Shown one piece after another: positions 9,966 through 43,082 of a stretch of DNA of 43,082 nucleotides. A program made the position numbers and the translations under genes. The DNA is from a virus (Duplodnaviria; Heunggongvirae; Uroviricota; Caudoviricetes): the IMG/VR virus record IMGVR_UViG_3300031420_000496, positions 69,472 to 112,553 of that record; one strand, written 5' to 3'. Each line of letters opens with the position of its first letter. The stretch's first letter is position 1. The notes under the pieces are model-generated. The model did no database searches and was not told the DNA's origin. It was given only the letters and a program-made list of their open reading frames with translations.

Positions 9966-9977
9966 TGAGGGTGATAC

Positions 9978-10571: not shown

Positions 10572-10594
10572 GAATAGCCTCCTAGATTGAAGGC

Positions 10595-10602
10595 TATTTA
10601 TG
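10595..10602 (-). promoter_or_regulatory. late promoter
   Basis: CATAAATA, 24 nt upstream of the lysozyme start. Confidence 0.75.
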
Positions 10603-10681
10603 GTTGTGATTACATCGAGCGCGCTGAACGAGGCCCACTTGGGTCGATATATAACTATGAACAAATACTCATAGAAAATAT

Positions 10682-11284: not shown

Positions 11285-11710
11285 TTTGCCGTTTGACATT
11301 TCTGGCCCAGTTGGATGGATCATCGCAGAGCCCTTCGGAACCATCGGGTGGATGCACGATTTCTTTTCGAAGTAATCGATGACCGTCAGTTTCGTTGTGA
11401 CTAGCTTGGAATCGTTGGGCGAGAAGAGGAGGATGTCGTGTTCGAACGTGGCACAGGCCGTGATCGGAATTGAATCAATGGTGTACGTCTCACGGTCAAC
11501 CGCGATAAGATTCCAGCTGGCAGGAAAGTCGATTTCCAGGTTCTGGACCCGGACGCGGATGGTAGGCCCGATGGTTTCTTCCAGGTACTCGAGTGGTTCG
11601 AGTTTGAAGTCCATCATGTGGCCGCTCAGCGTCCAGAAGTGGGTCACACCCATCGGCCCAGTAAGGGAATCGATGATGTATGACCTGGAGACTTCTGTTA
11701 GAATTTGCAT
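11201..11710 (-). CDS. hypothetical protein
   Basis: 169-aa ORF with phage codon usage. Confidence 0.65.
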   Translation of the reverse strand: MQILTEVSRSYIIDSLTGPMGVTHFWTLSGHMMDFKLEPLEYLEETIGPTIRVRVQNLEIDFPASWNLIAVDRETYTIDSIPITACATFEHDILLFSPNDSKLVTTKLTVIDYFEKKSCIHPMVPKGSAMIHPTGPEMSNGKSIFYGIVCGPHDIGRYVFGKTVGDILG

Positions 11711-18544: not shown

Positions 18545-19732
18545 TCATGAGATGTAGATCGTACACGAATCGACTTCCGCGCCCAACCACGGGGTTTCCA
18601 ATTGCATGGCGATCTGATGCACACGATGGTCTGGCAAGCTCTTGTCGCCGCGGGTCTTCTGGCGTTCTTTTGCCTTGGACTCCGAGATGAAGAACTCGAT
18701 GGAACGAACCGTATACCCTTTCGCCTTTGCGGCTTCGATATATTTACCGCGAGCCTTGCGACCTTGGTTCATTCGATCAACAACAATCGTCTTGCGAGTC
18801 TCCAACATCTTCGAGAACTCTTTGGCCGAGAACTGGTCGAAGGTCGGAGCTGCCAACTCGGCTTCGGTCTTGTCCTCCTTCTTTTTCAAGTGGCAGTAGT
18901 TCCAGCAGTATTGGTACTTCTGAGCTTCCGTCATGATTTCCATCTCGACGTAATCCTCGTACGGCATGTGGGCATGCGCGTAGTCCAACCGCAACTTGTC
19001 TTCGCTGAAGACATCGAAGATGCCGTCTATGTCGTTGACGAACGTCGACTTGCCAGCTCCGGAGATACCGACCAACATCACCAGCTCCGGAGCGTTCTTC
19101 GCGACCTCGCGTTCCTTCCAGGAAACCAACTGGAATTCATCGATCCAATCCTCGACGGCTTTCTTCTTCGCGTCGTGATCGTCCGAGATACGGCCATGGC
19201 AATCCGAACGCAACATGTCGTAGAAGCAGACGTCGTCTTCACCCAACGTCGCATCGATCATGTGAGCCAACCGCTGGCGCTTCTGCTCGTTCTTCAGACC
19301 GTACGGCAAGTGATGCTCGATCATCACTTTGATGATGCGAATATCTTTCCAGGTGAAACCCTGGTCGAAGAACATCTGACGCAGCTCGTGCTGATCGCAC
19401 ATGAACGACAGGAACTCGTTTGCGCTGATCGGTTCGTGACCGGCATAGCGACGATAGAACACGCCAGGCTCGTCTTTCTTCTCGAGCGTTTCTTCCGCCT
19501 CCGGCTTTCCGAAGTCGTGAAACAACAGTGCCATCAAGGTCAACACGCGTTGACGCTCGGTGCGACGAACGAAGAACATGTTCATGTACTTCTCGATCGT
19601 CATCGTGGTGTGCACGGCAACGTTGGCTTCACGATGCCACGGCGAATTCTCGACCGTGTTTTCCATCGTACGCCAGTTCGATGTTTGCTTTACGCGTTCC
19701 CAGAACGCGTTGAAAAACGCTACTGCTTCCAT
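18545..19732 (-). CDS. HD-domain phosphohydrolase fused to a P-loop polynucleotide-kinase-like domain
   Basis: WHRE..V..HT, LFHDFGKP, YAGHE, D..GR; then LVGISGAGKST, VVDRMN, ERQKTRGDK. Confidence 0.8.
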   Translation of the reverse strand: MEAVAFFNAFWERVKQTSNWRTMENTVENSPWHREANVAVHTTMTIEKYMNMFFVRRTERQRVLTLMALLFHDFGKPEAEETLEKKDEPGVFYRRYAGHEPISANEFLSFMCDQHELRQMFFDQGFTWKDIRIIKVMIEHHLPYGLKNEQKRQRLAHMIDATLGEDDVCFYDMLRSDCHGRISDDHDAKKKAVEDWIDEFQLVSWKEREVAKNAPELVMLVGISGAGKSTFVNDIDGIFDVFSEDKLRLDYAHAHMPYEDYVEMEIMTEAQKYQYCWNYCHLKKKEDKTEAELAAPTFDQFSAKEFSKMLETRKTIVVDRMNQGRKARGKYIEAAKAKGYTVRSIEFFISESKAKERQKTRGDKSLPDHRVHQIAMQLETPWLGAEVDSCTIYIS

Positions 19733-25101: not shown

Positions 25102-26655
25102 TCAAACTAGGAAAGGAACTGCCTCATCTCCGTATTGGTCATTGTCATCAGGTGCAATGTATTCATTGACCTGTTGGAAAGCCTCTTCATTGTACTCAGC
25201 CAAACGCTTCAGCAGGCGTGTTACAATGATCGTTGCCATAACAGCATCGTCAGTTGCACCAGGCTTTGCTTCGTACGTTCCGCCCTTCGCCACGAAGTTT
25301 TTCAGTTCTTCGAGCAGGATTGCCGACTTGATATTGAGTCCGCCACTGACTTTTTCGACCAGTGATTTGAGCTGCAGGCACGCAACGATCTTCTTCTTGC
25401 CTGTAGTGTAGACGCCCAGCTTGGCAGTCTGCGGTTCATCGCAGTACAGCTCAGCATGCTCTGGCTGACGCTCGTCGTTTGCATACAGCACAGACAGCGC
25501 TTCGCCAATACCGTTTCGTTCGAACGTCCAGATAACCTCAGCACGTCCTCGGCCAACCGGCATTGACAGAAGATTCAGCATCCACTTCAGCTTCGCGTAA
25601 AGCAGGGGAATGTTGACTTCGTTGCTTCGCCATTCCGCAACTTGGTTGAGCGATGGGAACTCGAATACTTCGATGACGGAATAGTCTTTGCCGGTACCAG
25701 TTGCCGGGTCGACCCCGACCAAGTACGTCTTGCCTGCACCACCGACTTCTTCATCAGGCACCCAGAACTTGAAGCCCATGTCTTCGTGGTGAGGTGCAGA
25801 CTCAGTGATCTGAATCAACTTCAGCGAGTTGATCAGCAACGCATCGGACGACAGGAACTCGCATCCAACCTCTTGACGGGTTGCAAGCAATCCAAGCTGC
25901 GATACCATCGTATCCCAGTATTTGTCGTCGCGCTTCGGGTGTTCTTGCCAGTACACGCGGAACGGTGCATAGCCGTTTGCACCAGGCTTTCCATCACCAG
26001 CACTCGATGCACCGCGCCACAGGGATGCGAAGAGTTCCGTGTCGCCGTTTGGCGTTGACGAAATGATAGCCGAACCACCAGTCGAAAGTGTTGGTGTCAG
26101 CGAGTTCCAGAGTTCCTGCTGAATGCGTGGGTTAATGAACGCCAACTCGTCGAGGTAAATCTTCGTGATAGCGAGACCACGACCGGTCTTTTCAGTGGTC
26201 GCTTCCGAAACGATACGCGAGCCATTGTCGAATTCGATGTTGTGGCGGTTGTAATACTTCAGCCCGCACTTGATCCAGTTCGGAAGATTCTCATAAGCGA
26301 AGCGAACGCGGCTTGCAATTTCAAGTGCGTGGCTCTGATTCTTCGATGCAATCAGCAGAAGCGCATCGGCATTAAACATCGCGTACCAAAGCAGGTACAT
26401 TGCGACGGTAAGAGTTTTACCGCACTGGCGAGGCTGGAGCGTAATCGTGAATCGATTATCCTGCATGTGGCGAATGAATCGTTCCTGATAATCGTACAGG
26501 TCGAATGCGACGTTACCTTGAACCGGGTCTTGAACGCGAATGTAGTTTCTAATAAAGTAGACTGGATCTTTCTTGCATCGGGCAAGTTCCATAATCATTT
26601 CCGGCGTATATTCATCCGTCGCATTCGCGCGTTTTAGTTGGGGATTTTTACTCAT
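25102..26655 (-). CDS. terL: terminase large subunit, T4 gp17-like
   Basis: LYDYQ, PRQCGKT Walker A, YLDELAF Walker B, SSTPNG, GVDPATG, TDDAVMA. Confidence 0.95.
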   Translation of the reverse strand: MSKNPQLKRANATDEYTPEMIMELARCKKDPVYFIRNYIRVQDPVQGNVAFDLYDYQERFIRHMQDNRFTITLQPRQCGKTLTVAMYLLWYAMFNADALLLIASKNQSHALEIASRVRFAYENLPNWIKCGLKYYNRHNIEFDNGSRIVSEATTEKTGRGLAITKIYLDELAFINPRIQQELWNSLTPTLSTGGSAIISSTPNGDTELFASLWRGASSAGDGKPGANGYAPFRVYWQEHPKRDDKYWDTMVSQLGLLATRQEVGCEFLSSDALLINSLKLIQITESAPHHEDMGFKFWVPDEEVGGAGKTYLVGVDPATGTGKDYSVIEVFEFPSLNQVAEWRSNEVNIPLLYAKLKWMLNLLSMPVGRGRAEVIWTFERNGIGEALSVLYANDERQPEHAELYCDEPQTAKLGVYTTGKKKIVACLQLKSLVEKVSGGLNIKSAILLEELKNFVAKGGTYEAKPGATDDAVMATIIVTRLLKRLAEYNEEAFQQVNEYIAPDDNDQYGDEAVPFLV

Positions 26656-27270: not shown

Positions 27271-27399
27271 TTAGTCTTTCTTTTTGTTCGGTGCTTTAGG
27301 CTTGATGATTCCTGCCCAATGCATGAACTTGTTTCCGAGATAGGTAGTTGCCGCAGTAGCTGCAGCAGCGGCAATTACCTTGCCGATCAAACGAAGCAT
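27271..27399 (-). CDS. 42-aa amphipathic peptide
   Basis: read by hand: MLRLIGKVIAAAAATAATTYLGNKFMHWAG...; TAATG overlap. Confidence 0.5.
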   Translation of the reverse strand: MLRLIGKVIAAAAATAATTYLGNKFMHWAGIIKPKAPNKKKD

Positions 27400-27773
27400 T
27401 ACTCGCTCTTGAAGTCGTCATCCAGAACGATCTTTTGATCCTTGACAGTGACAGTTGGTTGGTCACGTTCTTCGATCAGACGATTCGCTTTGGCTTTCGC
27501 AGCGTCAGCTTTTGCTTGAGCCGCGAATTTCAGATCAGCAGCTTTCACCTGTGCAGCAGCTTTTGCTTGCGATGCCTTGGCTTGTGCTGCAGCTTTCATG
27601 TCAGCCGCCTTGACAGCTGCGTCGGCTTTGATCTGAACTGCTTTCTCTTTACCTTCGCGGATGCGGGTCTTGAGTGGCTTGCGCTCAAGAGCTTCATTCA
27701 CGACTTTGGTAACGTACGCGGTTGCAACTGCACCGATAACGCTCACAAAGATTTTCTTAAACATTGGTCCCAT
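27399..27773 (-). CDS. Ala/Lys-rich coiled protein with hydrophobic N-terminal helix
   Basis: two ~22-aa repeats starting VKAADMK and VKAADLK. Confidence 0.65.
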   Translation of the reverse strand: MGPMFKKIFVSVIGAVATAYVTKVVNEALERKPLKTRIREGKEKAVQIKADAAVKAADMKAAAQAKASQAKAAAQVKAADLKFAAQAKADAAKAKANRLIEERDQPTVTVKDQKIVLDDDFKSE

Positions 27774-27811: not shown

Positions 27812-28375
27812 CTAGTCTAACATTTGGTTTTCGTCGAGCTTCGCGAGTTCCTTCTTGAACTCGTAGGCAAACCCTTCATTCCAGCGTTTAATCACTGGCG
27901 TCTTCGGTTTGTCGAACGTCCACTGCGGAATGCGATAAGCGGTAGCACCAGGATTCGACAGAAGCAGGCGAACATTCTTTGCCGCAGTTTTCGCTGCAGC
28001 CTGTACGCGCTTCGTACCTTCCTTGCCGATACCGATTTCTTTCATTCGCTTGGATAGCTTGGTCAGCACGACCAAGTTTCTTACCGTGTTATATAGCTCG
28101 TTGAACCAACGACCTCCACCAAAACCGGTCAGTGGCCCTCGACCCCAACCGCCCGTGCTATTTGTTGGCGGATTACCGACGTCTGGAGCTTGTACTGGTT
28201 CGCCAGTAATATCGCCCGATCCACCAGTGCTATCACCAACCGAAGGCGGTGCACCTTCGCCTCCACCACCTTCACCTTCCTCAACCAAGAGCATCGGCAA
28301 GATGCTTTCGTAGATGGCCAGACGTTTGCCTTCCAACAATGCAACAGGCGGGTTCAAGAGTTCATCCAGCTTCAT
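27812..28375 (-). CDS. late Gly-rich protein, possible head cargo
   Basis: begins MKLDELLN...LLE; late promoter upstream. Confidence 0.65.
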   Translation of the reverse strand: MKLDELLNPPVALLEGKRLAIYESILPMLLVEEGEGGGGEGAPPSVGDSTGGSGDITGEPVQAPDVGNPPTNSTGGWGRGPLTGFGGGRWFNELYNTVRNLVVLTKLSKRMKEIGIGKEGTKRVQAAAKTAAKNVRLLLSNPGATAYRIPQWTFDKPKTPVIKRWNEGFAYEFKKELAKLDENQMLD

Positions 28376-28405: not shown

Positions 28406-29143
28406 TTACGAACGGAACCATCCTTGGGCTTTTTTCTGCAGGTCAGCTTTTTCAAACACTGACGGCACCAGGTATGCTTCTTTGTTTTCGCGCAAGTGTT
28501 CCAGCGTGCGAACACCAACTGGGTTATCGACTGGCTCTGCATAGAATCCGGAAACCTGTTTGTAGATTTTCTGGATTGCTTCGTCGTCCAATTCGCCTGG
28601 ATTGTTCGAGACTTCCCGGAAGAAACTGAACTTGCCCTTGAAGTATTCCTTGTTGATTTCCGATTCTTCGTGAACCTTCTTGATGAAGTCTTCGTCAACG
28701 TGGCGATTGATTTTCTCCCCGCGTTCTTTTGCGCGAGCGATTGCTACGTCTAGGTTGACGTTGACGAATACCATACCAACGTCGTAGCCACAGGATTCCA
28801 GAAGACCGGCACGAGCCAGGATGTTCGACGCATCGTTCGATGTTCCGTCGACAAACAGCGGCAGCATCGAGTTCAGATAGTTGAACAACGATTCACTGGT
28901 CATTGGCTTGGTGCGATCGCGGAAGAACGATTTCCAGGTTTCCGAGTTCGAAACGATCTTGTACTTCTTCGACAGAAACTCAGTCGATCGGTCAGTGTTG
29001 ACGACGCGGGGTGAAATAGCTCCGTGCAGTTTCGAAACCGTATAGGATTTACCTGCGCCAGGGATACCCACGACGAAGAGTGCTTTGAGAATGCCCTTGT
29101 CGTTAATCGACTCGGTCATCATGTATTCTTTGAATGTAATCAT
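28406..29143 (-). CDS. P-loop kinase of the zeta-toxin/AAA_33 type with a capsid-targeting-like N-terminus
   Basis: MITFKEYMMTE; VGIPGAGKS, VNTD, FVDGT, GYDVGMVFV...AIARAKER. Confidence 0.78.
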   Translation of the reverse strand: MITFKEYMMTESINDKGILKALFVVGIPGAGKSYTVSKLHGAISPRVVNTDRSTEFLSKKYKIVSNSETWKSFFRDRTKPMTSESLFNYLNSMLPLFVDGTSNDASNILARAGLLESCGYDVGMVFVNVNLDVAIARAKERGEKINRHVDEDFIKKVHEESEINKEYFKGKFSFFREVSNNPGELDDEAIQKIYKQVSGFYAEPVDNPVGVRTLEHLRENKEAYLVPSVFEKADLQKKAQGWFRS

Positions 29144-29775
29144 CAGTAAATGTCCAGTGCTACGCGAATTGATTCTTCTGCCGAGATTGGGAATGCGTAA
29201 TACGCTTCGCAGGCAATCATGATTTCTTTCTCGTCCTTGATTGCAGCGTCAAGTTGTGAATCGGTATATGCTGACGTTTCCAATTTGTATTGGAGTGTAT
29301 GAACTGCATCCAGGTCATCCATATCAGCTTCGTCATCCATCAAATTGTAAAGGTCGCGCACACGTGCGGACCAAACGTATTTGAAGTCGCCAATTGGAAA
29401 GACCACGCACGGATCGCCATATTGATTCAGATAATGCTTTCGAATGCCTTGGCCGAAAACAAAAAGTGCTTGCGATCGAGCCCTAATTCCGAATTCTTTT
29501 TCGAACCAGTCATCAATTATTTTGTGCGCATCTCTGTTTGTATCCTTCGGCCTACGATCTGTGCGTACGGCTTTGCGCCAGTACAGAATTTCTTTACCTT
29601 CGTTGATTGGGTCGGATACTTTTCCAGTTTCATTACCTGGTCCAATGTTTCTAACACCGCGGAATAACAAACCACGGTGCCTGGACTTTTCAAGGAACGG
29701 CTTGCAGTCGCGTTTAATCAATTCCGCGAGGTCTTTTATTTCTTGTTCAGTAATGAACTGTTTGAACGTAATCAT
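29143..29775 (-). CDS. paralogue A of the cargo family, ART-like
   Basis: MITFKQFITE; LFRG, RSQALF, YGDPCVVFP, EKEIMI. Confidence 0.75.
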   Translation of the reverse strand: MITFKQFITEQEIKDLAELIKRDCKPFLEKSRHRGLLFRGVRNIGPGNETGKVSDPINEGKEILYWRKAVRTDRRPKDTNRDAHKIIDDWFEKEFGIRARSQALFVFGQGIRKHYLNQYGDPCVVFPIGDFKYVWSARVRDLYNLMDDEADMDDLDAVHTLQYKLETSAYTDSQLDAAIKDEKEIMIACEAYYAFPISAEESIRVALDIY

Positions 29776-30665
29776 TCGTCGTCTTCGTCGTCTTCGTCGT
29801 CTTCGTTACCATTATCGAGTTCTATTACGGCCTGTTTGAACTCGTCGTGGAAGCGGTATGGTACAGACAGGTATTTACCGGAGAACCACACCTCGCGTTG
29901 GTTACCAGGCAAATCAAGTTGATCGGACGTTACCAGCTTCACGCCCATTGCTTCAGGTGAAAGCTTCTCTGGCATTTGAGTTGCGACGCGCTGCAGTATC
30001 CTTGCGTACGCTGAATCTTCTCTTTCCAATTCAGCGAACTTATCGGCCAGTTCATCGTTGCCATTTGCCTCTGGATCGAACTTGCCATTTTTAGTGAACA
30101 CGTGCTTGATTTGTTTGAGCTGCTGCATTGGGTCGCCCATACCATTTTCGTATTCGGTGTTACGGAAAACAACGTACGCCTGTGCAATCTGTTCGATCAA
30201 GTCATCGAGCTGCATATACGGCTTGCCATCAAACCCGCGTGCGATGTTCATCGTGTTCAGGTCTTCTTCAGGCAGCACAGCAATCTTCACGCCATCGAAT
30301 GGATAGATCATCAGCAGATTGGACCCATCATCTGAAACGCTGTCGACGACAAATTCTCTTGTAGTTGAGCAGAAGATCGATTGACGACGTGGCGGGTATT
30401 CTTCCCAACCAGGTAGCGAAAACAGGAATGCCTGTTGCGCTGCAGAACCACCACGTGATTCTGAACGACGTGTGCGTGGTACACGTGTTTTGAGTTTGTG
30501 ATTGGCGTTGCTCATCCATGACTCGCCACTCAGTCGATACAATGGCTTCATGAGATTTTTGAAACGTTTACAGTGTTTCAGATATTCAGCCGCAGCCTCC
30601 ATCACGGACGCGTGCTCTTTGTCTGTCTCTTCTTCCTCGTGGAGAAATTGTTTGAATGTAATCAT
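29772..30665 (-). CDS. paralogue B of the cargo family, ART-like
   Basis: MITFKQFLHE; LYRL, RRQSIFCSTT, IYPFDG, QREVWFSG. Confidence 0.75.
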   Translation of the reverse strand: MITFKQFLHEEEETDKEHASVMEAAAEYLKHCKRFKNLMKPLYRLSGESWMSNANHKLKTRVPRTRRSESRGGSAAQQAFLFSLPGWEEYPPRRQSIFCSTTREFVVDSVSDDGSNLLMIYPFDGVKIAVLPEEDLNTMNIARGFDGKPYMQLDDLIEQIAQAYVVFRNTEYENGMGDPMQQLKQIKHVFTKNGKFDPEANGNDELADKFAELEREDSAYARILQRVATQMPEKLSPEAMGVKLVTSDQLDLPGNQREVWFSGKYLSVPYRFHDEFKQAVIELDNGNEDDEDDEDDE

Positions 30666-31438
30666 TAGTCGTCCTCTGGCGCCAGTTCGTCATCGTGGTC
30701 GTCTTGCTTCATTTTCTCCCACATTGTTCTTTCAATGGCGATGCATTTACCGCCAATCCACAATTCGCGATCGCCTGAGTAATCGTCAATTGTTTTTGTT
30801 GTTGCTAAGTGCAGGTCGAGGGTTTGCGGGCTGTATGCTTTCCTCAAGACACGTTCGACGTTTTCTGGAGAACCGAAAATGTCTCGTAGCATGCGAGCTG
30901 TTCGCTCAGCGTTCGGTGAAACACCGCCTTCCATCTTTGTCTTGATACTCTCGACAAATTGTTCGTACGATGCAGGCGAAAGTCCATACTCGTCCCAGAC
31001 TTTGTTCCAGCTCTGAATGCGCATCTCATCACCAGCATTACCAACCGTAAACTCAGGCGTGTACCAAAGGTCATCGCTGGAGCAAACACCAATTGGCACG
31101 CCATCGTATGGGAAGATGGCGTACACTCGACCGAAACCACGAGCCGTGTCGAGGTTGTTCGCCAGGATAATCGATTCGCTTCGTTTCGGATAACCGAATG
31201 CTGGGAGGAAATGATCCATGACAACAGTGTAATAATTTTGCGTGTTAGCTGATCTACGCTTCGATGCTTCGCCGTGCAGGGCAAATGCGTCACCATCAGG
31301 TGTCATACCGCGATACAGCTGACGACGATTTTTCAATGCATCGCGGCAATGTGTGTTGATCAGCTTGACTGCTTCATCGACGGTGATAACCTGCTTGTGC
31401 GCACCGGCTTCAGCCAAAAATTGTTTGAACGTTATCAC
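30665..31438 (-). CDS. paralogue C of the cargo family, ART-like
   Basis: MITFKQFLAE; LYRG, PKRSESII, GFGRVYAIFPYDG, DRELWIGG. Confidence 0.75.
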   Translation of the reverse strand: MITFKQFLAEAGAHKQVITVDEAVKLINTHCRDALKNRRQLYRGMTPDGDAFALHGEASKRRSANTQNYYTVVMDHFLPAFGYPKRSESIILANNLDTARGFGRVYAIFPYDGVPIGVCSSDDLWYTPEFTVGNAGDEMRIQSWNKVWDEYGLSPASYEQFVESIKTKMEGGVSPNAERTARMLRDIFGSPENVERVLRKAYSPQTLDLHLATTKTIDDYSGDRELWIGGKCIAIERTMWEKMKQDDHDDELAPEDD

Positions 31439-32244
31439 AGTCCCAATTCCTCTCGTATTTCATCCAGTATATTTTCCGGGATCATTACGCATTTTCCGGA
31501 GAACCACATTTCACACGAGCCTTTGTCCGGGTCTGGTATGTCATCTGGCGTTGTTAATTTGCAATCAAGTTGTTTGTAGCTATATGCCTTTGGCAAAGAG
31601 GCAACAAACCGCTTGACGATTTCTTCATCTGAAATCTTCGACCGATTCACACCATAAAGGTATCCATTACGGTGGAGACGATTCGCAACTGTTGCTGGGT
31701 GTTCGCTTTTAATTGCCGAAATCATATCAGCCAGTGACTTGATGTCCGAACTCTTGAGAAGCATATCACCAATCAACTCTTCCCAGAAATCGTTCAGGTC
31801 AGCAATCGAATCGCCTGCTGAAAACAAAACATCAAAGTCAATACGCAGGTCCCAGAAGTCGTCACTATCTACCAAACCAATCTTCACATCGTCAAATGGG
31901 AAACAATAAAGAATCGGGCCACTTGCGTAGTTTTCAGCTTTATACCTGTTGTTGGTAGTAATGAATGATTTGCTTCGCTTTGGAAACTCATCGTTCAGCG
32001 GGTTGGTATCTAGAAATATCGTGTAGAAATTCGATGTGTTCTGCGACTTACGTTCACCTGATCCAGGATTATATACGCCAGCAGGCAAGGTCGAACGAGA
32101 ACCGCGATAGATGAAATTCCCAGCCTGTGCAGAACGAAGTGCCTGCAAGCAATGGCGATCGAGCAACTCAACCAGGTCGTGAGTCGCCGCTGGCTCGTGA
32201 TCGTATGACTTCACTTTTGCTTCGAGGAATTGTTTGAATCTCAT
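31435..32244 (-). CDS. paralogue D of the cargo family, ART-like
   Basis: MRFKQFLE; IYRG, PKRSKSFITT, YCFPFDD, SCEMWFSG. Confidence 0.75.
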   Translation of the reverse strand: MRFKQFLEAKVKSYDHEPAATHDLVELLDRHCLQALRSAQAGNFIYRGSRSTLPAGVYNPGSGERKSQNTSNFYTIFLDTNPLNDEFPKRSKSFITTNNRYKAENYASGPILYCFPFDDVKIGLVDSDDFWDLRIDFDVLFSAGDSIADLNDFWEELIGDMLLKSSDIKSLADMISAIKSEHPATVANRLHRNGYLYGVNRSKISDEEIVKRFVASLPKAYSYKQLDCKLTTPDDIPDPDKGSCEMWFSGKCVMIPENILDEIREELGL

Positions 32245-32999
32245 TTCTGTGCGAGTCCCATTTCAATCATCATTTCATCCCACACATCCTGGCTGATTGC
32301 GATGCAGGGTCCGCCAATCCATAGCTCGTGACTTCCGCGAATTTTGTCGATGTTGGCCGAGTTGGTCAGTTCAAGTCCGAGATTTTCTGGGCTGTACGCC
32401 TGCTCGAATACGGAACTGATCTTTTCAATAGGTCCGAACCATTCCAACAAGTTATGGCTTTCCTCAGAATCTCCCTGCATTTTCTCTTCAAGCGAGTCTT
32501 TGAATTCTTCCCAGCTATCAGGAGATAAACCATTGCGACGATAGAAACTATTCCAGGATTCAATGCTGCGTTTATCCGGGCATTTACCAATTTTGAATGA
32601 CGGTGTTTCCCAAAGGTCATAGCTTTGGCAAACACCAATTGATACGTCGTCATACGGGAAGATTGCATAGCGCGCACCGAACCCGCGTGTATAATCTTTG
32701 TTCTCGTTGTTTGCGCAGATGATTGACTTCGAACGTTTTGGGTATCCGAAATACGGGAGGAATTTATCCATAATCACGGTGTAGTAATTGCTGGTATTCG
32801 CAGACGTACGACCGCCCGCTTCACCGTGAATAATCATTGCATCAGAACCTGATGTCATGCCACGCCAGATTGGGCGATGGAAAAGCTTCATTGCATCCTT
32901 GCAATGTTCGTTCAACATCTTTTCGACATCGCGCGCTGGGATAGACTTCTTGTATCTGGCTGCTTCTTCCTCTGCAAGGAGAAATTCCTTAAACCTCAT
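32241..32999 (-). CDS. paralogue E of the cargo family, ART-like
   Basis: MRFKEFLLAE; IWRG, PKRSKSII, GFGARYAIFPYD, SHELWIGG. Confidence 0.75.
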   Translation of the reverse strand: MRFKEFLLAEEEAARYKKSIPARDVEKMLNEHCKDAMKLFHRPIWRGMTSGSDAMIIHGEAGGRTSANTSNYYTVIMDKFLPYFGYPKRSKSIICANNENKDYTRGFGARYAIFPYDDVSIGVCQSYDLWETPSFKIGKCPDKRSIESWNSFYRRNGLSPDSWEEFKDSLEEKMQGDSEESHNLLEWFGPIEKISSVFEQAYSPENLGLELTNSANIDKIRGSHELWIGGPCIAISQDVWDEMMIEMGLAQK

Positions 33000-33481
33000 T
33001 TGATTTCCTTTACCTCGGCATCAACTGAAATCATGCGCATGATTTCTTCACGTGATGCAACCACGACATTGTTCTGCGTTTTGTTTGCGTACGGGACGAA
33101 AGCAGAATTACGCTTGCGGTCACCCTTGACTTTCGCCTTGGTTGCAACTGCGTTGAGCGCGATCGTCAGATAAGTTGCAGCAACTTCGGCATTGCGAGCT
33201 GCATAACGCGGCTCGATGATCTGCGTGTATTCAGTCTGCTGCTGGAAAGTTTCCAGCGCGACATCATAGACTTGATCGAGCTTGGCGTCGATTTCTTTAT
33301 CCTCGTCGTCCTTTTCTTCCGAACGTGGAGGTTCAGCCATCTCGGCAAGTTCGCCTTCGGTGATCTGGTCGTACTCTTCGATTCCGCCTTCAATCTTTTC
33401 TTCTTCAGGCTGGTGTTGCGGTTCCGTGTTGAACAGCTCGTCGAGCGGATTCAGGATTGGGTTTTCAGATTTCTGTTTCAT
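32996..33481 (-). CDS. probable terminase small subunit
   Basis: EPRYAARNAEVAATYLTIAL resembles the PRAYEV helix of T4-like gp16; C-terminal NNVVVASREEI. Confidence 0.5.
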   Translation of the reverse strand: MKQKSENPILNPLDELFNTEPQHQPEEEKIEGGIEEYDQITEGELAEMAEPPRSEEKDDEDKEIDAKLDQVYDVALETFQQQTEYTQIIEPRYAARNAEVAATYLTIALNAVATKAKVKGDRKRNSAFVPYANKTQNNVVVASREEIMRMISVDAEVKEIK

Positions 33482-34190
33482 GGTCAGCTCCAAGTTTTTC
33501 CAGCATTGATTCGAATAAATCTCTTTCGATAGCGATGCATTTGCCGCCAATCCAGAGCTCGTGTTCTTGATCAGCCTGATTGTATTTTTGTGCGGTTGCA
33601 GTAGTTGCCAGATCGAAAGGCACGCTATACTCTTGCTTGAGATATTCTGCTAGATGGTCTTTGTGATCTTCAATTCCCCACAGGTCCCTGCGTTCAAGTA
33701 GCGTTTGGAAGTCTTCAACAAGGTGTGCAAATGAATCGTCACGAATGTCGTTGTTCTCGTAAAAATCATTCCAGCGGTGAATGCGTTGTACGCGATCGCC
33801 GAGTTTAACTTCGCTGTAAAACATATCGCGTTCTGGGCAGATACCAATCTTCACGCCATCAAATGGAATGATGACATGCATTTTGCCGTATCCGTATGTG
33901 TAGTCGCGATTCTCCCAATTCGCGCAGATAATCGATGCACTTCGTTTAGGATAATCTGGCAATGCTTCATCGAGAATAACGGTATAGTGGTTTGTCGTAT
34001 TCGCAGATTTGCGACCACCAGCTTCACCGTGGATAATACCGAAACCATTTTTCATTTTGGTCATGCCACGCACAATAGGTGTGTTGATACTTTTCAACGC
34101 ATCCTTGCAATTGGCTTTTATCAACGCGATGATTTCGTCTTCAGTGTCGATGTCGGTCTTGTATTGACCAGCGATTTCGTATAGCTTCAT
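33465..34190 (-). CDS. paralogue F of the cargo family, ART-like
   Basis: MKLYEI; IVRG, PKRSASII, GYGKMHVIIPFDG, EHELWIGG. Confidence 0.75.
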   Translation of the reverse strand: MKLYEIAGQYKTDIDTEDEIIALIKANCKDALKSINTPIVRGMTKMKNGFGIIHGEAGGRKSANTTNHYTVILDEALPDYPKRSASIICANWENRDYTYGYGKMHVIIPFDGVKIGICPERDMFYSEVKLGDRVQRIHRWNDFYENNDIRDDSFAHLVEDFQTLLERRDLWGIEDHKDHLAEYLKQEYSVPFDLATTATAQKYNQADQEHELWIGGKCIAIERDLFESMLEKLGADHETEI

Positions 34191-34675
34191 AGAGGTGTTC
34201 GTGCTCCGGCTTTCGCGGCAGAGGTTTTGTAAATTGTTTTCTCGGTGACAACACGGAATGTTGCGCCCTGGGATTCAGCGAAGATCGAAGCGGCTTTCCA
34301 CTTCGCCTGGTTCACTGCGTACATCATCTTGTCGCGTTCGGTCATACCAGGCGTCAGCACTGATTCGCGATACGGTTTGACCTCGATGATTTCCTTCTTG
34401 ATATTGCCAGCTGCATCGCGGTAGAGCATGATGAAGTCTGGAAAATACCGAGAAACTTTCGGTCGACCGTTCACATCCACCTTGACTGGGTTGACGTATG
34501 GGATCGCGAGTTCTTCTGAACCCCAACGAAGCACGGCTGGATTCGAATCCATCCACTTCATGAACGTCAGTTCCCAGCTTGAGCGGAACATGATGTTGTT
34601 TGAATTGCCAACATATTTCTGTGGGTTCTTTGGCAAGAACCGACCATGCATCGTTCGTTTTGTTCCTGTTGCCAT
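34187..34675 (-). CDS. head completion nuclease, T4 gp4-like
   Basis: FLPKNPQKYVG, RSSWE, WGSEELAIPY, YFPDF, EVKP, NQAKWKAA. Confidence 0.9.
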   Translation of the reverse strand: MATGTKRTMHGRFLPKNPQKYVGNSNNIMFRSSWELTFMKWMDSNPAVLRWGSEELAIPYVNPVKVDVNGRPKVSRYFPDFIMLYRDAAGNIKKEIIEVKPYRESVLTPGMTERDKMMYAVNQAKWKAASIFAESQGATFRVVTEKTIYKTSAAKAGARTPL

Positions 34676-34684
34676 GACGCGTCC

Positions 34685-36079
34685 TTACTTAAGAATAGTG
34701 TTGCGACCCAGATAAGTGTTGGAACCCCAGGTCCAGCTACCGTCTGGATAATACGTTGTCACACCTTCAACATCAGCACGACCGCCGACAGCTGAGTCCA
34801 TAACGGACGTTGAGCCGGATGCACTTTCCATAGGACTTGTAGCTTCACTTGGTGCTTTGATGACGTTCATGTTGGAGAAGGCTGCACCTGCCTGATTGAC
34901 AATGCTTGTGCTGATGTTTCGGCTTGCAGCTCCGACGAGGCCGCCAACGATGTTCGATGCGTGGCTGCTAATCAACGACGCGAATTGTCCTTTACCAGCG
35001 ATTGACTGCACAGCGCGATTGATGGCTGACGATGTGATCTGTTGGCCTGCGCGACCGATTGAATTCGAAATGATGCTGCCGAATATACCGCCTGCACCTT
35101 GCGGATTCGTTGCACCGCCACCAGCAGGCGAGACGTCGACTGGCGCACCATGAACACCTGGTGTTGCTACGTTGTAGCTTGGGCCGTCCGGCTTGGACAG
35201 TGGACCAGTGTTGACGATTTCCATCCAGTCATAGTCGAACTGCATCGTGATCAGGTTGGCATCCGAACCTTCATGTGACAGGTCATCAAGGTCGAATGAC
35301 ACGAGCCTAGCATTCATGAAGTCGAAAATCGTTTCCTCAACCGCATTGCCGATGACAGAACCTGGGTTCACGTAAATCTGTTTGACGCGGACAGTTTGAA
35401 TTGCGTTACCAACATTCGAGTTGATCGTTCCGCGAATAGCCGTGTCGTTCGCTTGCTCAGGCAATTGCGAGAAGTTCATACCGTTACCTTCCCGGATCGA
35501 CATCGCGTCAGGTGGCGCAAGGCGACCAGCTTCGGAACCAGCGTTCTGGCGGAGCATTTGTCGACGCGTAATAGGCGAGTGCAGCATCATGAGGATGCGG
35601 AAGAAGTCCAGCACGCGGTTGCCGGTGTCGTCCATGAAGGTCATCGTGAGTTCGCGGTGGCGAATCTTCTTCAGTGCCTTCGTCCGGAAGTTGTACATGT
35701 TGACGTCGTCTTCATACTCGAAGTCGATCTTCGGGCGGTCAACGGATTTGACCATGAACGTGAAGTCCTGGCTGTTCTGTCGTGCCAGCTCTGGTGCAGC
35801 AGCCTTTGCTTCTTCAGTGAATACAAATTCGACCTTGAAGAGGAACTTCAGCTTTGGGCGGAAGCTGGTTCCACCAGCAAGAGCCGCAGCGTATGATGAC
35901 GAATAGAAAGACCCATCGTTTCGATTGGTAGTAGCGGTCGAATCAGATGCAGAAATGCCTAACGCAGGACCCAATGTTCCTCGAGTAAATTCTTCAACCG
36001 CAGCACCGAACTTTTCAGAAGCCTGACGTTCCAGCGCAATCTTGGTGCCATTTAGAATTGGTGTTAACTGGTTTGGCAT
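34685..36079 (-). CDS. tube-fold baseplate or tube-initiator protein (gp54/gp48-like)
   Basis: RPKLKFLFKVEF, VKSVDRPKI, LTMTFMDD, ITMQFDYD resemble the gp19 fold; late promoter upstream. Confidence 0.65.
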   Translation of the reverse strand: MPNQLTPILNGTKIALERQASEKFGAAVEEFTRGTLGPALGISASDSTATTNRNDGSFYSSSYAAALAGGTSFRPKLKFLFKVEFVFTEEAKAAAPELARQNSQDFTFMVKSVDRPKIDFEYEDDVNMYNFRTKALKKIRHRELTMTFMDDTGNRVLDFFRILMMLHSPITRRQMLRQNAGSEAGRLAPPDAMSIREGNGMNFSQLPEQANDTAIRGTINSNVGNAIQTVRVKQIYVNPGSVIGNAVEETIFDFMNARLVSFDLDDLSHEGSDANLITMQFDYDWMEIVNTGPLSKPDGPSYNVATPGVHGAPVDVSPAGGGATNPQGAGGIFGSIISNSIGRAGQQITSSAINRAVQSIAGKGQFASLISSHASNIVGGLVGAASRNISTSIVNQAGAAFSNMNVIKAPSEATSPMESASGSTSVMDSAVGGRADVEGVTTYYPDGSWTWGSNTYLGRNTILK

Positions 36080-36885: not shown

Positions 36886-37434
36886 ATGACGCCGTTCTAC
36901 AAACACCTGAAAGGCGTGCTCACGCCTGAAGAATGCGATCGCATCATCGCGATTGGCAATGAGCATGGCTTCGCAGAAGCACCGATCACGATGCGCGATG
37001 GTTCGCAGCAGATGTTCAAGGACGTCCGCAACAACGACCGCGTTACGTTCCACGACATGCTGATGGCGCTGGAGCTGACTGAGACCATCATCGGCGAGAT
37101 TCCGAAAGAATTCAAGGACGCCAAATACGTCAAGCTGGGTTCGTTCTTCCGTCTGTACCGGTACGTGCCGGGCCAGTACTTCAAGCCGCACTACGACGGT
37201 TCGTTCGATGCCGGCGACTGCGCGAGCGAAATCACCGTGCTGTTTTATCTGAACGACACCGACGGCGGCGAAACCGTTCTGCGTCCGCGTCGTGCTGCAC
37301 CACGAGACGAGTGGATCGTGATCGAACCGAAGAAAGGCGACGTGCTGATGTTCGAGCATCACATCTTGCACGAAGGCAAGGAAGTCAATTCCGGCAAAAA
37401 GTTCGTACTGCGCACTGACGTTTTTTACGCTTAA
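36886..37434 (+). CDS. 2-oxoglutarate/Fe(II) oxygenase, prolyl-4-hydroxylase-like
   Basis: FRLYRY..GQYFKPHYDG (HxD), LFYLND..GGET, PKKGDVLMF, HEG, K..LRTD. Confidence 0.9.
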   Translation: MTPFYKHLKGVLTPEECDRIIAIGNEHGFAEAPITMRDGSQQMFKDVRNNDRVTFHDMLMALELTETIIGEIPKEFKDAKYVKLGSFFRLYRYVPGQYFKPHYDGSFDAGDCASEITVLFYLNDTDGGETVLRPRRAAPRDEWIVIEPKKGDVLMFEHHILHEGKEVNSGKKFVLRTDVFYA

Positions 37435-38982: not shown

Positions 38983-40050
38983 TCAAATTGGCCTGAAGAC
39001 CACGTGACTACCAAATGAGTTGTTCGTTTGCAGATTGTTTGGCAGAAGCGCAAACGAGTCACCAGTACGTTGGTATACTTTGCCTTGATAGTTCGCTGTT
39101 CCAACTGATCCGCTAATTGCCACATACAAGCCATTCGGGCTGAACGCAATTCCGGACAAAACACCTGCTGGCTTTGGTACATTGAGATTTGTCAGAGTGG
39201 TTGAGCCATTCCATTTGTATATGGCAATGAGTGCTCCGTTTGCCGCCGCGCCGTAAGCTGCAAGATATTGATTATCAGGCGAAAGAGAAAACTTTCTCAG
39301 GCCACCACCGAATGCGAGATAATTAACACGCGTAGCAACATCGCTCGTAAATCTCCACCACACAATGCTGTAAGATGCGTCTGTTGTTGTCGCAAACAGA
39401 TAGGTGCCGTCTTTCGACCATTCCAGCCAGCCGGCTGCGCCAGGGTTCGACGAACCGTATTGTGCTCCAGCCGTAAGCCTCACGTACGTTGTGCCGTTCC
39501 ATTTGAAGAGGTATGCACCAGTTGAGCTAGATGTTGATACAGCAATGTATTGTCCGTCAGGCGATATGCAGGCACTTGAGATTCCACCGGGAACCGCGGT
39601 GATATAAGCTATTTGAACATAGGTAGAACCATCAGCCGCCAAATCAAATACGCGAAGGCCACCACCAGTATAATCTGCGTAACACATTCTTCCATTTTTT
39701 GAAAATGAAAGCGGTTGACTCTGTGCAGATTCAGTTGAAGGAGCAGGGAAAGTTCCGTAGTCGATATTCACCTGCGTATAATCGCCTGTTGAACTTCTAC
39801 GGTAGAGTTGAAGAAATGGGGCGTATCGAGTTCCTAAAGCAAACCAATTACCATCAGGAGAATATGCAGGCGATCTAGCATAGCTAGGAAGCGAAGGAAC
39901 CTTATTTAGGACCGTGAATTTATTTACAGTCGGATCAATGCTGTACAGTACGGTGTTGATCGGGCCGCCAGAAGCCTCGACGAACAAAAGCTCTGCAGCT
40001 GTCGATACAGCGGTTGTTGCCTTATATGGCTGTGAAACAATGAGAGGCAT
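38983..40050 (-). CDS. beta-propeller (WD40/YVTN-like) late protein
   Basis: repeated YSPDG, SFSKNG, ISPDGQY, WSKDGTY, LSPDNQY, FSPNGLY blades. Confidence 0.82.
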   Translation of the reverse strand: MPLIVSQPYKATTAVSTAAELLFVEASGGPINTVLYSIDPTVNKFTVLNKVPSLPSYARSPAYSPDGNWFALGTRYAPFLQLYRRSSTGDYTQVNIDYGTFPAPSTESAQSQPLSFSKNGRMCYADYTGGGLRVFDLAADGSTYVQIAYITAVPGGISSACISPDGQYIAVSTSSSTGAYLFKWNGTTYVRLTAGAQYGSSNPGAAGWLEWSKDGTYLFATTTDASYSIVWWRFTSDVATRVNYLAFGGGLRKFSLSPDNQYLAAYGAAANGALIAIYKWNGSTTLTNLNVPKPAGVLSGIAFSPNGLYVAISGSVGTANYQGKVYQRTGDSFALLPNNLQTNNSFGSHVVFRPI

Positions 40051-40336: not shown

Positions 40337-42196
40337 TCAGATGCCTGCGTCTGTCGCAACCACACGGATCGCGATGTACAGGAATTCTGCTGCTCGTGTT
40401 GGCTTGATTGCAACGTCCAGCCAGAGTTCGTTCCTGTCGACACGATCCCCGTAGTTGTTGCTTTCATCGCAGTACGTCGCATAGTCCGTCAAACCGCGTT
40501 TGATCAGGATGTCATTCAGCACAGCGTCAGCTGCTGCTTTCAGATTGTCGCGCGTTACCTGGTCGTTTGGTTCGAACACGAACGGCAGTGCGCCCTTACG
40601 CAGCGAGCGACGCAGGTACATCACGAGGCGAACCACGTTGATGCGATCCATTGCCGAAGCAGCTGGTGCCGAAGTCTTCTGTCCCCAAACCAACATGCCG
40701 CGTCCTGGGAAGAACGTGATCGGGTTGATGTTCTTGTCTGGTTCGTACAGGTAGTCGCGTTGTCCGTCGTTCAGGTTGCAGTCGACGAATGTCGTTGCAG
40801 TGCCTGGTGTTCCGCTGAAGTAACCAACCTTCGATACGCCGGATACGAGACCACGTGCAACACCTGCTGGCGGAGTCCAGACATAACCCGCATTGTCGCT
40901 GTAGGCGATCGTGCGAAGTGCAGTGCCGGATGGCGCGCCAAGGACGTTACGACCGTCCATATTCGACTGCAGGCACCATGGGTAGTAGTACGCGATTGAT
41001 TCCGAGTTAAAGCGTTCAGTGGTCAGAGCCCACTGTCCAACTTGGTCTGGCGACATGTTACCTGGAGTATCAGCGATGACCAGTGCTTCGTCCTTGATTG
41101 CGACAGAGAGTGCTTGCAGCTCGTCAACAACTTCTGGATAGCCAGGGCAGAGGATCAGGTTGTATTCGTACATCGACGAACGAACTTCAACGTTGCTGTT
41201 GATTTCGGCTTGCAGAGCGGTTGTGATTGCAACGCGACGTGCAGCATCATTTGCGCCGAGTGGCGACGAAACAGTTACGCTCGAAGCAACGATTTCGAAT
41301 ACGTCACCAGCAGCAAACGCGGTATTTCCAGCCACTGCGGTGAAGCTGAGAACTTGACCGTTGGTTTGGCTGTCGGCAAAGTCTGCACCGACGTGACCAG
41401 TTCCCATTGGGCCAGCTACTGTACCATCAACGTCGAACGAAGTTGGTGAAGTGAATGTGATCGTGAATGTTTGCGGTTGAGTCAGCGCGCCAGCTTCGAG
41501 ATTCGTGATGCGTCCGTTACCAGTCATTTCGCCACGAGCCGTTGCTGCATAGTCCATGTAGAACATGAACGTGTCATTTGACGCAAACGGAACGTCGCCC
41601 GTTGTCAGCTCGAAGTTGATGAAGTTCGATGTGAACGGAAGCCCAACACTACCTGAGCCGATATAGCCCGACTTGTCACCCGATACAGAGAACGAAGATG
41701 GTGACGAGAATCGTACCATGAACATCTGTGGGCGAACGCTTGCACTTGCTGCAGCTACATTTTCAAGCTGGCCAGTGCCAAGACCTTGGAAGTCAACTGC
41801 ACCTGTCAGAGCAGGAGTTCCCATGCTGAGGAAGGTTTCAGGTTCGTCTGCGAGGTCGATGTTTGCGCGAACGACATACGCACGGTTACCAACACCGAGG
41901 AAGTTGTTCAGCGCGAGCAGACCGTATTCGTTACGTGCGTCGCCGTGGAATTCATTACCTGCGGAATCGCGGCGGAACGATGGAACACCGTAAAGCTGGA
42001 GCGACTGCGCCACGGAAGTGACAGTGCGGACAACTGAGTGTTCAAGCGTACCAGCTGCCGGTGTGATACCGTTTGGCTGAACCTTCCCTGCATTGGTTGC
42101 GAGGAAGATAAGCGGAACTGTCGATGCCGACACCGGAATGAAATAGCTCTCGTTTGTAACAGTGACTGAGACGCCTGGGGATACCAGTGTTGCCAT
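40337..42196 (-). CDS. tail sheath protein, gp18-like
   Basis: LVSPGVSV, NELGY-like NEYGLLA, YYYPW, PPAGVARG, NINPITFFPG, WGQKT, DRINVVRL, IKPTRAAEF. Confidence 0.94.
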   Translation of the reverse strand: MATLVSPGVSVTVTNESYFIPVSASTVPLIFLATNAGKVQPNGITPAAGTLEHSVVRTVTSVAQSLQLYGVPSFRRDSAGNEFHGDARNEYGLLALNNFLGVGNRAYVVRANIDLADEPETFLSMGTPALTGAVDFQGLGTGQLENVAAASASVRPQMFMVRFSSPSSFSVSGDKSGYIGSGSVGLPFTSNFINFELTTGDVPFASNDTFMFYMDYAATARGEMTGNGRITNLEAGALTQPQTFTITFTSPTSFDVDGTVAGPMGTGHVGADFADSQTNGQVLSFTAVAGNTAFAAGDVFEIVASSVTVSSPLGANDAARRVAITTALQAEINSNVEVRSSMYEYNLILCPGYPEVVDELQALSVAIKDEALVIADTPGNMSPDQVGQWALTTERFNSESIAYYYPWCLQSNMDGRNVLGAPSGTALRTIAYSDNAGYVWTPPAGVARGLVSGVSKVGYFSGTPGTATTFVDCNLNDGQRDYLYEPDKNINPITFFPGRGMLVWGQKTSAPAASAMDRINVVRLVMYLRRSLRKGALPFVFEPNDQVTRDNLKAAADAVLNDILIKRGLTDYATYCDESNNYGDRVDRNELWLDVAIKPTRAAEFLYIAIRVVATDAGI

Positions 42197-42251
42197 TGTT
42201 TTTCTCCTATGGATTGGCAGCATAACCTGCTGCTCTGGTTGTTCATCAACA

Positions 42252-42290: not shown

Positions 42291-43082
42291 TCACTTTAGA
42301 TTAAAAGCCTTCACGAATGCTTTGATATTCTCATTTTCCTCGGCAGACGCGTCATCCTGAATCTGTTTCAATACGCCAGGATTTCCTTTGTTCAGACGTG
42401 AAAACCATACTTTGAATTCAGCAATTGCCTTAACTGAGACTTCATCAATCTGTCCAGATGCAATGGCATGTCCTGTTGAATCCATGATTTGACGCAGGCG
42501 TTCCGTTGCTCGTTTGTAATCTTCACCGTGAATATTGGCTTTGAATAGATTAAGAATTGTCGGCCCGATCAGAGCTTCCAAACTACCTGGCTTGCTAACA
42601 GCATAGTAACCCGGTGGCGGCTGAGTTTTCGCAGTCTTCGCAGCGTCGAACAACTTGCCAACTTTCTTCAGATATTCTTGACGATCAGCATCAGGGTCGC
42701 AAGCGAGTTCGAGGACGGTCAGAAAACGGCCAACGTCCGATTCAATCTGCTTGTACTTCTTGTGGTAATTGTCGTTACCACCAGTACGAAACTCCAGGTA
42801 GCCCTGGCTGAGTTTGCTAAGGTTGACGGTGCGATACTTTGCGCTCTGCAACATCTCACTGGCAAGATCGATAAGCTGCTTCGCGTCTTTTGGTGGGCGA
42901 CCAGATTTCTGAATGCCGCTGATCAAATCGTTGTAGTGTTTAGTTGCAAACGTATTGGCTTCACGAGCATAGCTCTTCAGCACGTGTGCTTCGCCCATGA
43001 ACAGGATCAGCTTGAGTGGATCGAGTTTTTGTTTGAGACCTGGGATCGAGAGGTTAATGTGAATGCCGGTGCTGGAGTTTGT
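42291..43082 (-). CDS. putative amidoligase (COOH-NH2 ligase type 2), N-terminus outside the window
   Basis: frame open to the window edge: TNSSTGIHINLS, KYRTVNL, GYLEFR. Confidence 0.72.
   Translation of the reverse strand, partial: TNSSTGIHINLSIPGLKQKLDPLKLILFMGEAHVLKSYAREANTFATKHYNDLISGIQKSGRPPKDAKQLIDLASEMLQSAKYRTVNLSKLSQGYLEFRTGGNDNYHKKYKQIESDVGRFLTVLELACDPDADRQEYLKKVGKLFDAAKTAKTQPPPGYYAVSKPGSLEALIGPTILNLFKANIHGEDYKRATERLRQIMDSTGHAIASGQIDEVSVKAIAEFKVWFSRLNKGNPGVLKQIQDDASAEENENIKAFVKAFNLK

Follow-up and report, generated by a model that had tools for sequence, protein, structure and literature searches.

An array of leader-tagged paralogues with a predicted ADP-ribosyltransferase-like fold in an uncultured T4-related jumbo phage

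The Alt protein of phage T4 is the textbook example of a head-carried enzyme that reprograms the host on entry. Here we describe an array of six genes, p1 to p6, whose products share a short N-terminal leader and are predicted to adopt an ADP-ribosyltransferase (ART)-like fold. Arranged head to tail, the six genes occupy minus-strand positions 29143-34190 of a 43,082-nucleotide stretch of viral DNA (hereafter the window; positions 69,472 to 112,553 of IMG/VR record IMGVR_UViG_3300031420_000496) whose source is an uncultured T4-related jumbo phage. The window is covered by the 112-kb record, and the same genes were also found on contigs of approximately 375 kb. Together with the T4 internal proteins that bear a capsid targeting sequence (CTS), Alt is the nearest known system. 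Alt is a late-made, capsid-carried ART that is injected with the DNA and trimmed after an N-terminal L/I-x-E peptide (PMC9026906), and its L/I-x-E start (MELITE) resembles the leader of the array proteins. However, Alt is a single protein of 682 residues with canonical R, S-T-S and E-x-E motifs, whereas the array consists of six copies of 210-297 residues, which lack a Pfam ART domain and have a non-canonical serine motif, a variable residue two positions before the glutamate (Glu-2), two extra invariant arginines and a long variable insert. T4 ModB resembles the family in its LYRG strand and in its E-x-E-hydrophobic-turn strand (LYRG and E-L-W-I-G-G in the family), and weak profile matches were obtained on both strands; in contrast to what is proposed here, ModA and ModB of T4 are not packaged.

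In the T4 CTS, targeting depends on residues 4 and 7, and residues 8 and 10 serve for processing, in which the gp21 protease cleaves behind the glutamate (PMC9026906). The T4 internal proteins and the array proteins have in common a ten-residue tag in which positions 4 and 7 are aromatic, position 8 is aliphatic and position 10 is glutamate, and in both cases the tag is common to otherwise unrelated, diverse cargo. In T4 the internal proteins are small and basic and have no enzymatic activity, whereas the putatively packaged and cleaved array cargo is acidic, enzyme-like and expanded into paralogue arrays, and its leader sequence varies between phage lineages. Among proteins of known structure, the best match to both of our models was BC2332 (PDB 2aua; SCOP d.166.1.6, ADP-ribosylation superfamily), a functionally uncharacterised bacterial protein with a compact ART fold that forms a single domain of roughly 200 residues. 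BC2332 lacks a leader and does not occur in an array; local templates matched it to a diphtheria-toxin type site, whereas the array family has Arg-Gly on strand 1. Finally, the polyvalent proteins of phages and conjugative elements bring effector domains, ARTs among them, into the cell with the DNA that invades it (Iyer et al. 2017, PMC5512222). Some relatives of the array proteins are likewise multi-domain; in the window, however, the modules are separate genes with a leader each, and no Pfam ART domain scores. Compared with Alt and the CTS proteins, the locus differs in its unnamed family, its non-canonical motifs with three invariant arginines, its acidic cargo, its arrays and its linked kinase.

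The first-pass annotation of this DNA, made from the sequence alone, had described six diverged paralogues in the interval. All six open reading frames (ORFs) were present, and a family profile searched against the 112-kb record found exactly these six and nothing else (E 2.6e-99 to 8.8e-24). An independent gene call on other assemblies returned the same six genes and the 161-aa gene that lies among them. The copies, all on the minus strand, are p1 (29143..29775, 210 aa; phrog_11975 at 2.4e-29), p2 (29772..30665, 297 aa; family profile E 1.6e-45), in which the insert is the longest and the C-terminal tail is acidic, p3 (30665..31438, 257 aa; E 2.9e-96), p4 (31435..32244, 269 aa; E 1.2e-59), p5 (32241..32999, 252 aa), for which 79 homologues were found and which served as the modelled reference copy, and p6 (33465..34190, 241 aa; E 1.5e-83). 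All six match phrog_12810 and/or phrog_11975, both of unknown function. Outside the leader, the pairwise identity of the copies ranges from 17 to 51%, with p3 and p5 as the closest pair (51%), and p1 shows 17-21% identity to the other five. The six genes are true paralogues. The earlier description needed amendment in three respects: the interval also holds the unrelated gene, orf161, p1 belongs to a distinct short-insert subfamily in which proline replaces the conserved serine, and the N-terminal leader had been left out of account.

The family extends far beyond this phage. When 1.84 billion representatives were searched, 6179 clusters at 50% identity matched the profile at E 0.001 or better, 1553 of them at 1e-30 or better, and the clusters of the family in the ESM Atlas were almost all viral. 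By tblastn, isolated phages with copies were limited to Atu_ph07, RsoM2USA and Salicola phage SCTP-2, and one metagenomic phage was matched as well; Megablast against isolated phages gave no near relative. In 25 viral contigs, same-strand arrays of 2-8 copies were usual, and the number of copies per genome ranged from 3 to 12 or more, some of them dispersed. The complete 381-kb relative IMGVR_UViG_3300011242_000001 contained 12 family matches, scattered rather than gathered in one array; they lie at about 14-25 kb, 99 kb, 124 kb, 151 kb and 345-379 kb, and one of them has an in-frame TAA. Several copies can also occur in one protein: the metagenomic protein P0178 (2645 aa) contains five family domains, and gp54 of Atu_ph07 (7464-8936) contains two. 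These multi-copy relatives look like polyproteins, and leader-like sites inside them might be where a prohead protease cleaves. A Pfam scan of the longer relatives, including the 2645-residue protein, found no extra domains, and family profiles searched against PDB sequences gave chance helical matches only. No description of the family was found in the literature covered, which included the main text of the 2021 jumbo-phage survey (Iyer et al. 2021), where the Atu_ph07 array proteins are not cited. The family appears to be a new sequence family without a named domain.

The fold was assessed with two AlphaFold models, one of p5 built from an alignment of 74 sequences and one of p1 built from a separate alignment of 27 sequences. 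The p5 model had a predicted local distance difference test score (pLDDT) of 94.7 and a predicted template modelling score of 0.89, and the p1 model had a pLDDT of 89.5, with residues 1-10 below 50 (disordered). In an exhaustive structural search of 48,161 PDB representatives by VIA-align, ART-fold chains occupied ranks 1-7 for the p5 model and ranks 1-11 for the p1 model. The p5 matches were led by BC2332 (Z 6.0), Arr (5.2), diphtheria toxin (4.1) and AvrPphF ORF2 (4.0), and further matches included exotoxin-A-like toxins, a Tpt1-type entry, DarT, PARP domains, CopC/OspC3 and CteC. For p1, only 34 chains reached a Z of 2 or more, and the top eleven included BC2332 (5.8), AvrPphF, Arr, CopC, DarT twice, SopF, a PE-like toxin, OspC3 and DarT1. 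The alignments with BC2332 covered 130-132 residues at a root-mean-square deviation of 3.5-3.9 and a sequence identity of 8-11%. When the 863 best chains from Foldseek were realigned, only 7 reached a Z of 2 or more, and the best five were ARTs. The convergence of two separate models on one superfamily among tens of thousands of clusters makes chance very unlikely. ART folds were essentially all of the top structural matches of both models, which supports the fold call that had been made by eye, and on the strength of the models the family probably has an ART-like fold.

Other likenesses were considered. The top Foldseek rows were cupin and oxygenase chains with template modelling (TM) scores of 0.1-0.2; all of them fell below a Z of 2 on realignment and were ruled out. 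Searching the ESM Atlas by shape returned the unnamed viral clusters of the family itself, followed by cyclic nucleotide (cNMP)-binding domains at TM 0.3-0.38, which also recurred in the VIA lists at a Z of about 3. This likeness was taken as a shared beta-sandwich arrangement and set aside, because the ART chains gave higher scores and longer alignments. Clusters of the AlphaFold database yielded uncharacterised proteins only. Language-model features of the Atlas pointed to DUF2441 (0.83) and DUF3841 (0.79), the former of which belongs to the ART clan of Pfam; neither was found in the 112-kb record.

By the published definition, strand 1 of an ART carries R/H-G-[ST], strand 2 carries S-x-S or Y-x-x and leads into a helix, and a glutamate stands at the front edge of strand 5 (PMC7955679). 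In the models, the first core strand holds R46-G47-x-T49 in p5 (residues 44-48) and R39-G40 in p1 (residues 37-41), and the glutamate (E225 in p5, E184 in p1) opens the penultimate strand, which leads through a tight turn into the last strand. The modelled positions of Arg-Gly and Glu match the published definition, and the arginine and glutamate of the signature proposed earlier were thus placed where an ART would have them in both models. The p5 codons of these residues are at 32862-32864 (R46) and 32325-32327 (E225) on the minus strand. The motif R-x-S-x-N-T precedes the helix that follows strand 2, and in the p5 model it sits in a loop about 8 residues past the strand, while K-R-S-x-S, the second serine motif of the annotation, precedes strand 3. 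Comparison by HHalign with a T4 ModA/ModB profile gave a short local match on the R-G strand, in which R46 aligned with R73 of ModB (P 0.005), and a separate match on the Glu strand, in which E184 aligned with E173 of ModB (P 0.09); column-shuffled controls reached these scores in 1/150 and 10/150 cases, respectively. A low-stringency profile alignment put R-x-S-x-N-T within one residue of R-V-D-S-F-T of ModB, and global HHalign was otherwise uninformative. These profile matches are suggestive, though no proof, of a link to the R-S-E ARTs. By the modelled positions of its key residues, the family is ART-like; it is not of the canonical R-S-E type.

All of the motifs listed in the annotation were recovered in the six copies and in the stated order, namely [LI]xxxC, a hydrophobic-R-G strand, R-x-S/P..T, (P)KRS.S with a strand, G[FY]G..FP[YF]D, D-L-[WY] (seen here as D[LFM][WFY]), the variable helical insert and, last, the strand bearing the invariant glutamate. 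The copies differ in detail. In p1, E-K-E precedes the strand and proline occupies the position of the conserved serine. The most canonical set of the six, R, S-x-S and Q-x-E, is found in p2 (LYRL, with no glycine, S-E-S and Q-R-E). The corresponding motifs are LYRG, S-A-N-T and D-R-E in p3, IYRG, S-Q-N-T and S-C-E in p4, and IVRG, S-A-N-T and E-H-E in p6, and p5 has S-H-E at the Glu strand. Conservation was counted over 236 family sequences in p5 numbering, and the sequences are otherwise 20-50% identical. R89 and P115 were invariant (236/236 each), and R64 (234/236), R46 (233/236) and the glycine after R46 (229/236) were nearly so. E225 was glutamate in all 205 sequences aligned at that position. 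At position 66, serine was found in 207/236 sequences and proline in 27/236, the latter in the p1 subfamily. By contrast, the Glu-2 residue varied across the family (D 34, E 34, K 19, P 17, S 16 and others), as did the position equivalent to H58 of p5. The helical insert, between the fourth and fifth core strands, ranged from about 35 to 115 residues. The variability of the insert and of Glu-2, to which the annotation had drawn attention, was thus seen both in the motif alignment and in the family counts.

The proteins begin with a short leader: MITFKQFITE in p1 (encoded at 29746-29775), MITFKQFLHE in p2 (30636-30665), MITFKQFLAE in p3 (31409-31438), MRFKQFLE in p4 and MRFKEFLLAE in p5 (32970-32999), those of p4 and p5 lacking one residue at the start. 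In p6 the leader is short, MKLYE (34176-34190), and of the MKL.E[IL] type that is common in the family. The neighbouring gene for a kinase-like protein starts with MITFKEYMMTE, and T4 IPII and IPIII, whose sequences were read directly, start with MKTYQEFIAE. p1-p3 and the kinase carry F4, F7 (tyrosine in the kinase), [LIM] at position 8 and E10 or E11 at the positions that are key in T4. Only seven ORFs of the 112-kb record have the leader, namely the six paralogues and the unrelated kinase. The leaders of p2 and p3 are alike at 8/8 aligned positions, while the two proteins are 23% identical elsewhere. Across the family, [LIVMFT]-x-E occurred within the first 13 residues in 226/233 members, compared with 30/236 in a control window. 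The leader differs between phages and is common to the cargo within each of them.

The kinase gene (28406..29143, minus strand, 245 aa) encodes a P-loop kinase of the Zeta-toxin/AAA_33 type (Pfam Zeta_toxin 8.5e-10, AAA_33 6.4e-08) that is not homologous to the paralogues. The kinase matches positions 258-457 of phrog_12810, whereas the paralogues match positions 1-254, and in Atu_ph07 gp53 (8960-11296; 778 aa), a virion protein, an ART-like domain is fused to the kinase. In 10 other viral contigs, the leader of the kinase follows the ART-like leader of the same phage, for example MRLGGFIDE beside MRLNNYLEE, and MIKLKNILE beside MIKLKNIL.E (contig L034). After the leader, the kinases have a conserved E-S-[IV]-x-D-x-G-[IL]-[FL]-K-A motif. 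A second kinase-like protein (395 aa, phrog_6931) is encoded at 18545-19732 on the minus strand, 9 kb downstream and outside the array; in its C-terminal half it is similar to families of polynucleotide kinases or ATPases.

Homologues of the array proteins are already known from virions. In Atu_ph07, gp53-gp63 were all detected in purified virions by electrospray ionization tandem mass spectrometry, with 3-31 unique peptides each (PMC6102473, Table S5), and the profile search identified gp53-gp63 as family members. Each of their N-termini is a variant of M[RK]W.QL.E; an exact search of the Atu_ph07 genome with this pattern found nine array members (gp54-gp62) and one dispersed copy, and the reversed-pattern control found 0. 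The proteomics of RsoM2USA covers abundant bands only. A gp21-type protease is present in Atu_ph07 (gp204; PMC6102473), in the complete 381-kb relative (E 8.5e-37) and in a second uncultured relative. The shared T4-CTS-like leader is the strongest evidence for virion delivery, by analogy with T4. Virion delivery had been proposed in the annotation with no mention of the leader, and the proposal gains support both from the leader and from the published proteomics of the Atu_ph07 homologues. The paralogy of the six genes, the conservation and modularity of the leader and the prediction of an ART-like fold are established here.

Given these observations, the best explanation, which we favor with moderate confidence on the basis of the models and the T4 analogy, is that the array encodes capsid-tagged, injected ART-fold enzymes that would modify host macromolecules with NAD+. 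The six proteins would be made late, with the structural genes. A leader of approximately 5-10 residues (M-I-T-F-K-Q-F-L-x-E or M-K-L-x-E) would take each protein into the prohead core in the manner of the T4 CTS, and a gp21-type prohead protease would remove it after the glutamate. The mature acidic proteins of 23-33 kDa would then be retained in the head and pass into the next host along with the DNA and the leader-tagged Zeta-like kinase. There they would most likely hold NAD+ in a cleft formed by the strand 1 arginine, the two further invariant arginines, the conserved serine and the penultimate-strand glutamate, and ADP-ribose would be transferred to host macromolecules, with the variable helical insert and the Glu-2 residue probably giving each copy a target of its own. 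From packaging onward, this scheme draws on the T4 analogy and the Atu_ph07 proteomics, and its chemistry draws on fold and residue conservation only; in this way we infer location in the head rather than the tail, cleavage, injection, the use of NAD, the class of target and the differences in target between copies.

Several findings weigh against this explanation. The structural Z-scores are only 3-6, under the level that the notes of the search tool call safe. The annotation had suggested structure prediction and comparison with ART folds as a check; for p1 and p5, the copies on which it was run, ARTs took the top VIA ranks and Foldseek returned nothing from the PDB at E 0.001 or better for either model. 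A Pfam scan of the six paralogues and 74 family members, up to E 5, found no ART family and no consistent family of any kind. The R-S-E signature that had been read from the sequence was upheld for its arginine and glutamate and is otherwise incomplete: no S-T-S is found at the end of strand 2, and the motif S-x-N-T lies off the strand end, in the loop, with its serine replaced by proline in p1 and its subfamily; and [QE]-x-E is limited to p1 (E-K-E), p2 (Q-R-E) and p6 (E-H-E), at a position that is not conserved family-wide. The profile links to ModA/ModB are weak, with HHalign probabilities of 7% and <1%, and HHalign against T4 Alt as a single sequence gave no signal. As regards delivery, the Atu_ph07 proteomics gives neither a head-versus-tail location nor mature N-termini (PMC6102473). 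In the 112-kb record (31% complete) no gp21-type protease (PF03420) scored above threshold, and the paralogues are acidic, with an isoelectric point (pI) of about 5, unlike the basic internal proteins of T4.

The departures from the canonical motifs raise the question of whether the proteins are enzymes at all. They might be packaged and injected and yet act as ART-fold pseudoenzymes or binders, that is, as inhibitors or decoys of host defence or of other host proteins, with no ADP-ribosyl transfer. Such a role would suit the absence or poor conservation of S-T-S and [QE]-x-E, the loss of the glycine after the arginine in p2 and the loss of the serine in p1. It also has precedents, given that the T-even internal proteins are diverse defence inhibitors with the CTS alone in common, T4 IPI* inhibits a restriction enzyme, and inactive ART-like domains are known (PARP13 and plant RCD1/SRO1) and were present among the structural matches. 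We nevertheless consider this reading unlikely. Three arginines, one glutamate and one proline are invariant or nearly so, which in sequences of such low identity is typical of a ligand or active site and not of a variable binding surface, and the arginine and glutamate occupy the catalytic positions of the fold. The same three invariant arginines could instead suggest a phosphate-rich ligand, and the proteins might be ART-fold enzymes that do not transfer to macromolecules, such as an NAD+ glycohydrolase or phosphorylase (RES-like or TNT-like) or a Tpt1-like enzyme, possibly coupled to the kinase. The fusion or adjacency of the domain to a Zeta/AAA_33 kinase in many phages, the Tpt1-type entry and DarT among the structural matches, and the extensive RNA-repair and NAD-centred systems of this jumbo phage group are all in keeping with such an activity. 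However, a conserved histidine of the Tpt1 type is missing, as shown by the variable H58-equivalent position, the invariant glutamate at the strand-5 position is a transferase hallmark, and there is no direct evidence for any particular substrate; we regard this as improbable.

Similarly, only a small probability is assigned to the notion that the proteins are structural or assembly parts of the virion (core, scaffold, inner body or surface decoration), in which case the leader would serve assembly only and the ART likeness would be a relic or due to chance. The genes do lie in a late structural operon, between the head completion and terminase genes, the virions of Atu_ph07 comprise 131 proteins, of which many are unexplained and some may be located in its hair-like fibres, and the structural scores are low. 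On the other side, the number of copies varies widely between genomes, with some copies dispersed, and the inserts are hypervariable, features that fit conflict effectors better than stoichiometric building blocks. Moreover, the kinase carries the same leader, and two separate models converge on one enzyme superfamily. Injected ART-fold enzymes acting on host macromolecules therefore remain the explanation that we prefer.

The genomic setting of the array is a late structural block on the minus strand, in the order tail sheath (40337-42223), tube-like protein (34685-36079), gp4-type protein, the six-copy array, the kinase, three small ORFs and the large terminase (25102-26655). The gene directly upstream of p6, which it overlaps by 4 nt, encodes a T4 gp4-type head completion protein (34187..34675, minus strand; phrog_218 head closure 1.2e-44, Pfam Tn7_TnsA-like_N 6.2e-20). 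From this gene through the kinase, successive genes overlap, mostly by 1-4 nt and by 17 nt between orf161 and p6, which suggests one late structural transcript. Scans for sigma-70 promoters and terminators inside the array gave signals at chance level only, and the T4 late promoter TATAAATA was not found in the window. Between p5 and p6, orf161 (32996..33481, minus strand, 161 aa) encodes an acidic protein (pI 4.5) that has neither a leader nor a family, with no PHROG match and a Pfam match that is sub-threshold only. A related contig (L011) has a gap of orf161-like size at the same position of its array, and the protein could be a partner, chaperone or inhibitor of its neighbours. Beyond the kinase, a Gly-rich ORF without a PHROG match (27812..28375, minus strand, 187 aa) starts with MKLDELL, which by eye only is alike to the short leader type of p6, and it is possible that this is a further cargo gene. 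The ORF at 27399-27773 (minus strand) has an N-terminal hydrophobic segment and Ala/Lys-rich repeats and no PHROG match. Among the tail genes upstream of the array are those for a 2OG-Fe(II) oxygenase (36886-37434, plus strand), a beta-propeller (WD40-like) protein (38983-40050, minus strand) and an Amidoligase_2 protein (42291-43000, minus strand), as called from precomputed Pfam matches on another assembly.

The array can be viewed as the logic of T4 Alt multiplied, with more than 6000 clusters, arrays of 3 to 12 or more copies, a head-loading tag and a kinase alongside. As a tentative proposal, possible rather than probable at present, the family would be a large unrecognised ART clade with a signature of its own (Arg-Gly on strand 1, two more invariant arginines, Ser-x-Asn-Thr and a lone glutamate) and would be the principal set of effectors that T4-related jumbo phages inject. 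Within seconds of the onset of infection, and together with the co-injected kinase, every paralogue would ADP-ribosylate its own host target, which might be a nucleic acid or a component of defence, and the tag would allow the injected proteome to be read from the sequence. Since the tag co-varies between unrelated cargo within each phage, the injected proteins of uncultured phages could be listed by sequence alone. The homologues in Atu_ph07, which grows on a laboratory strain of Agrobacterium, are already known virion proteins, and the idea is therefore open to bench testing. If active, the family would be a rich source of novel NAD-dependent modifiers, by means of which jumbo phages may disarm their hosts before gene expression.

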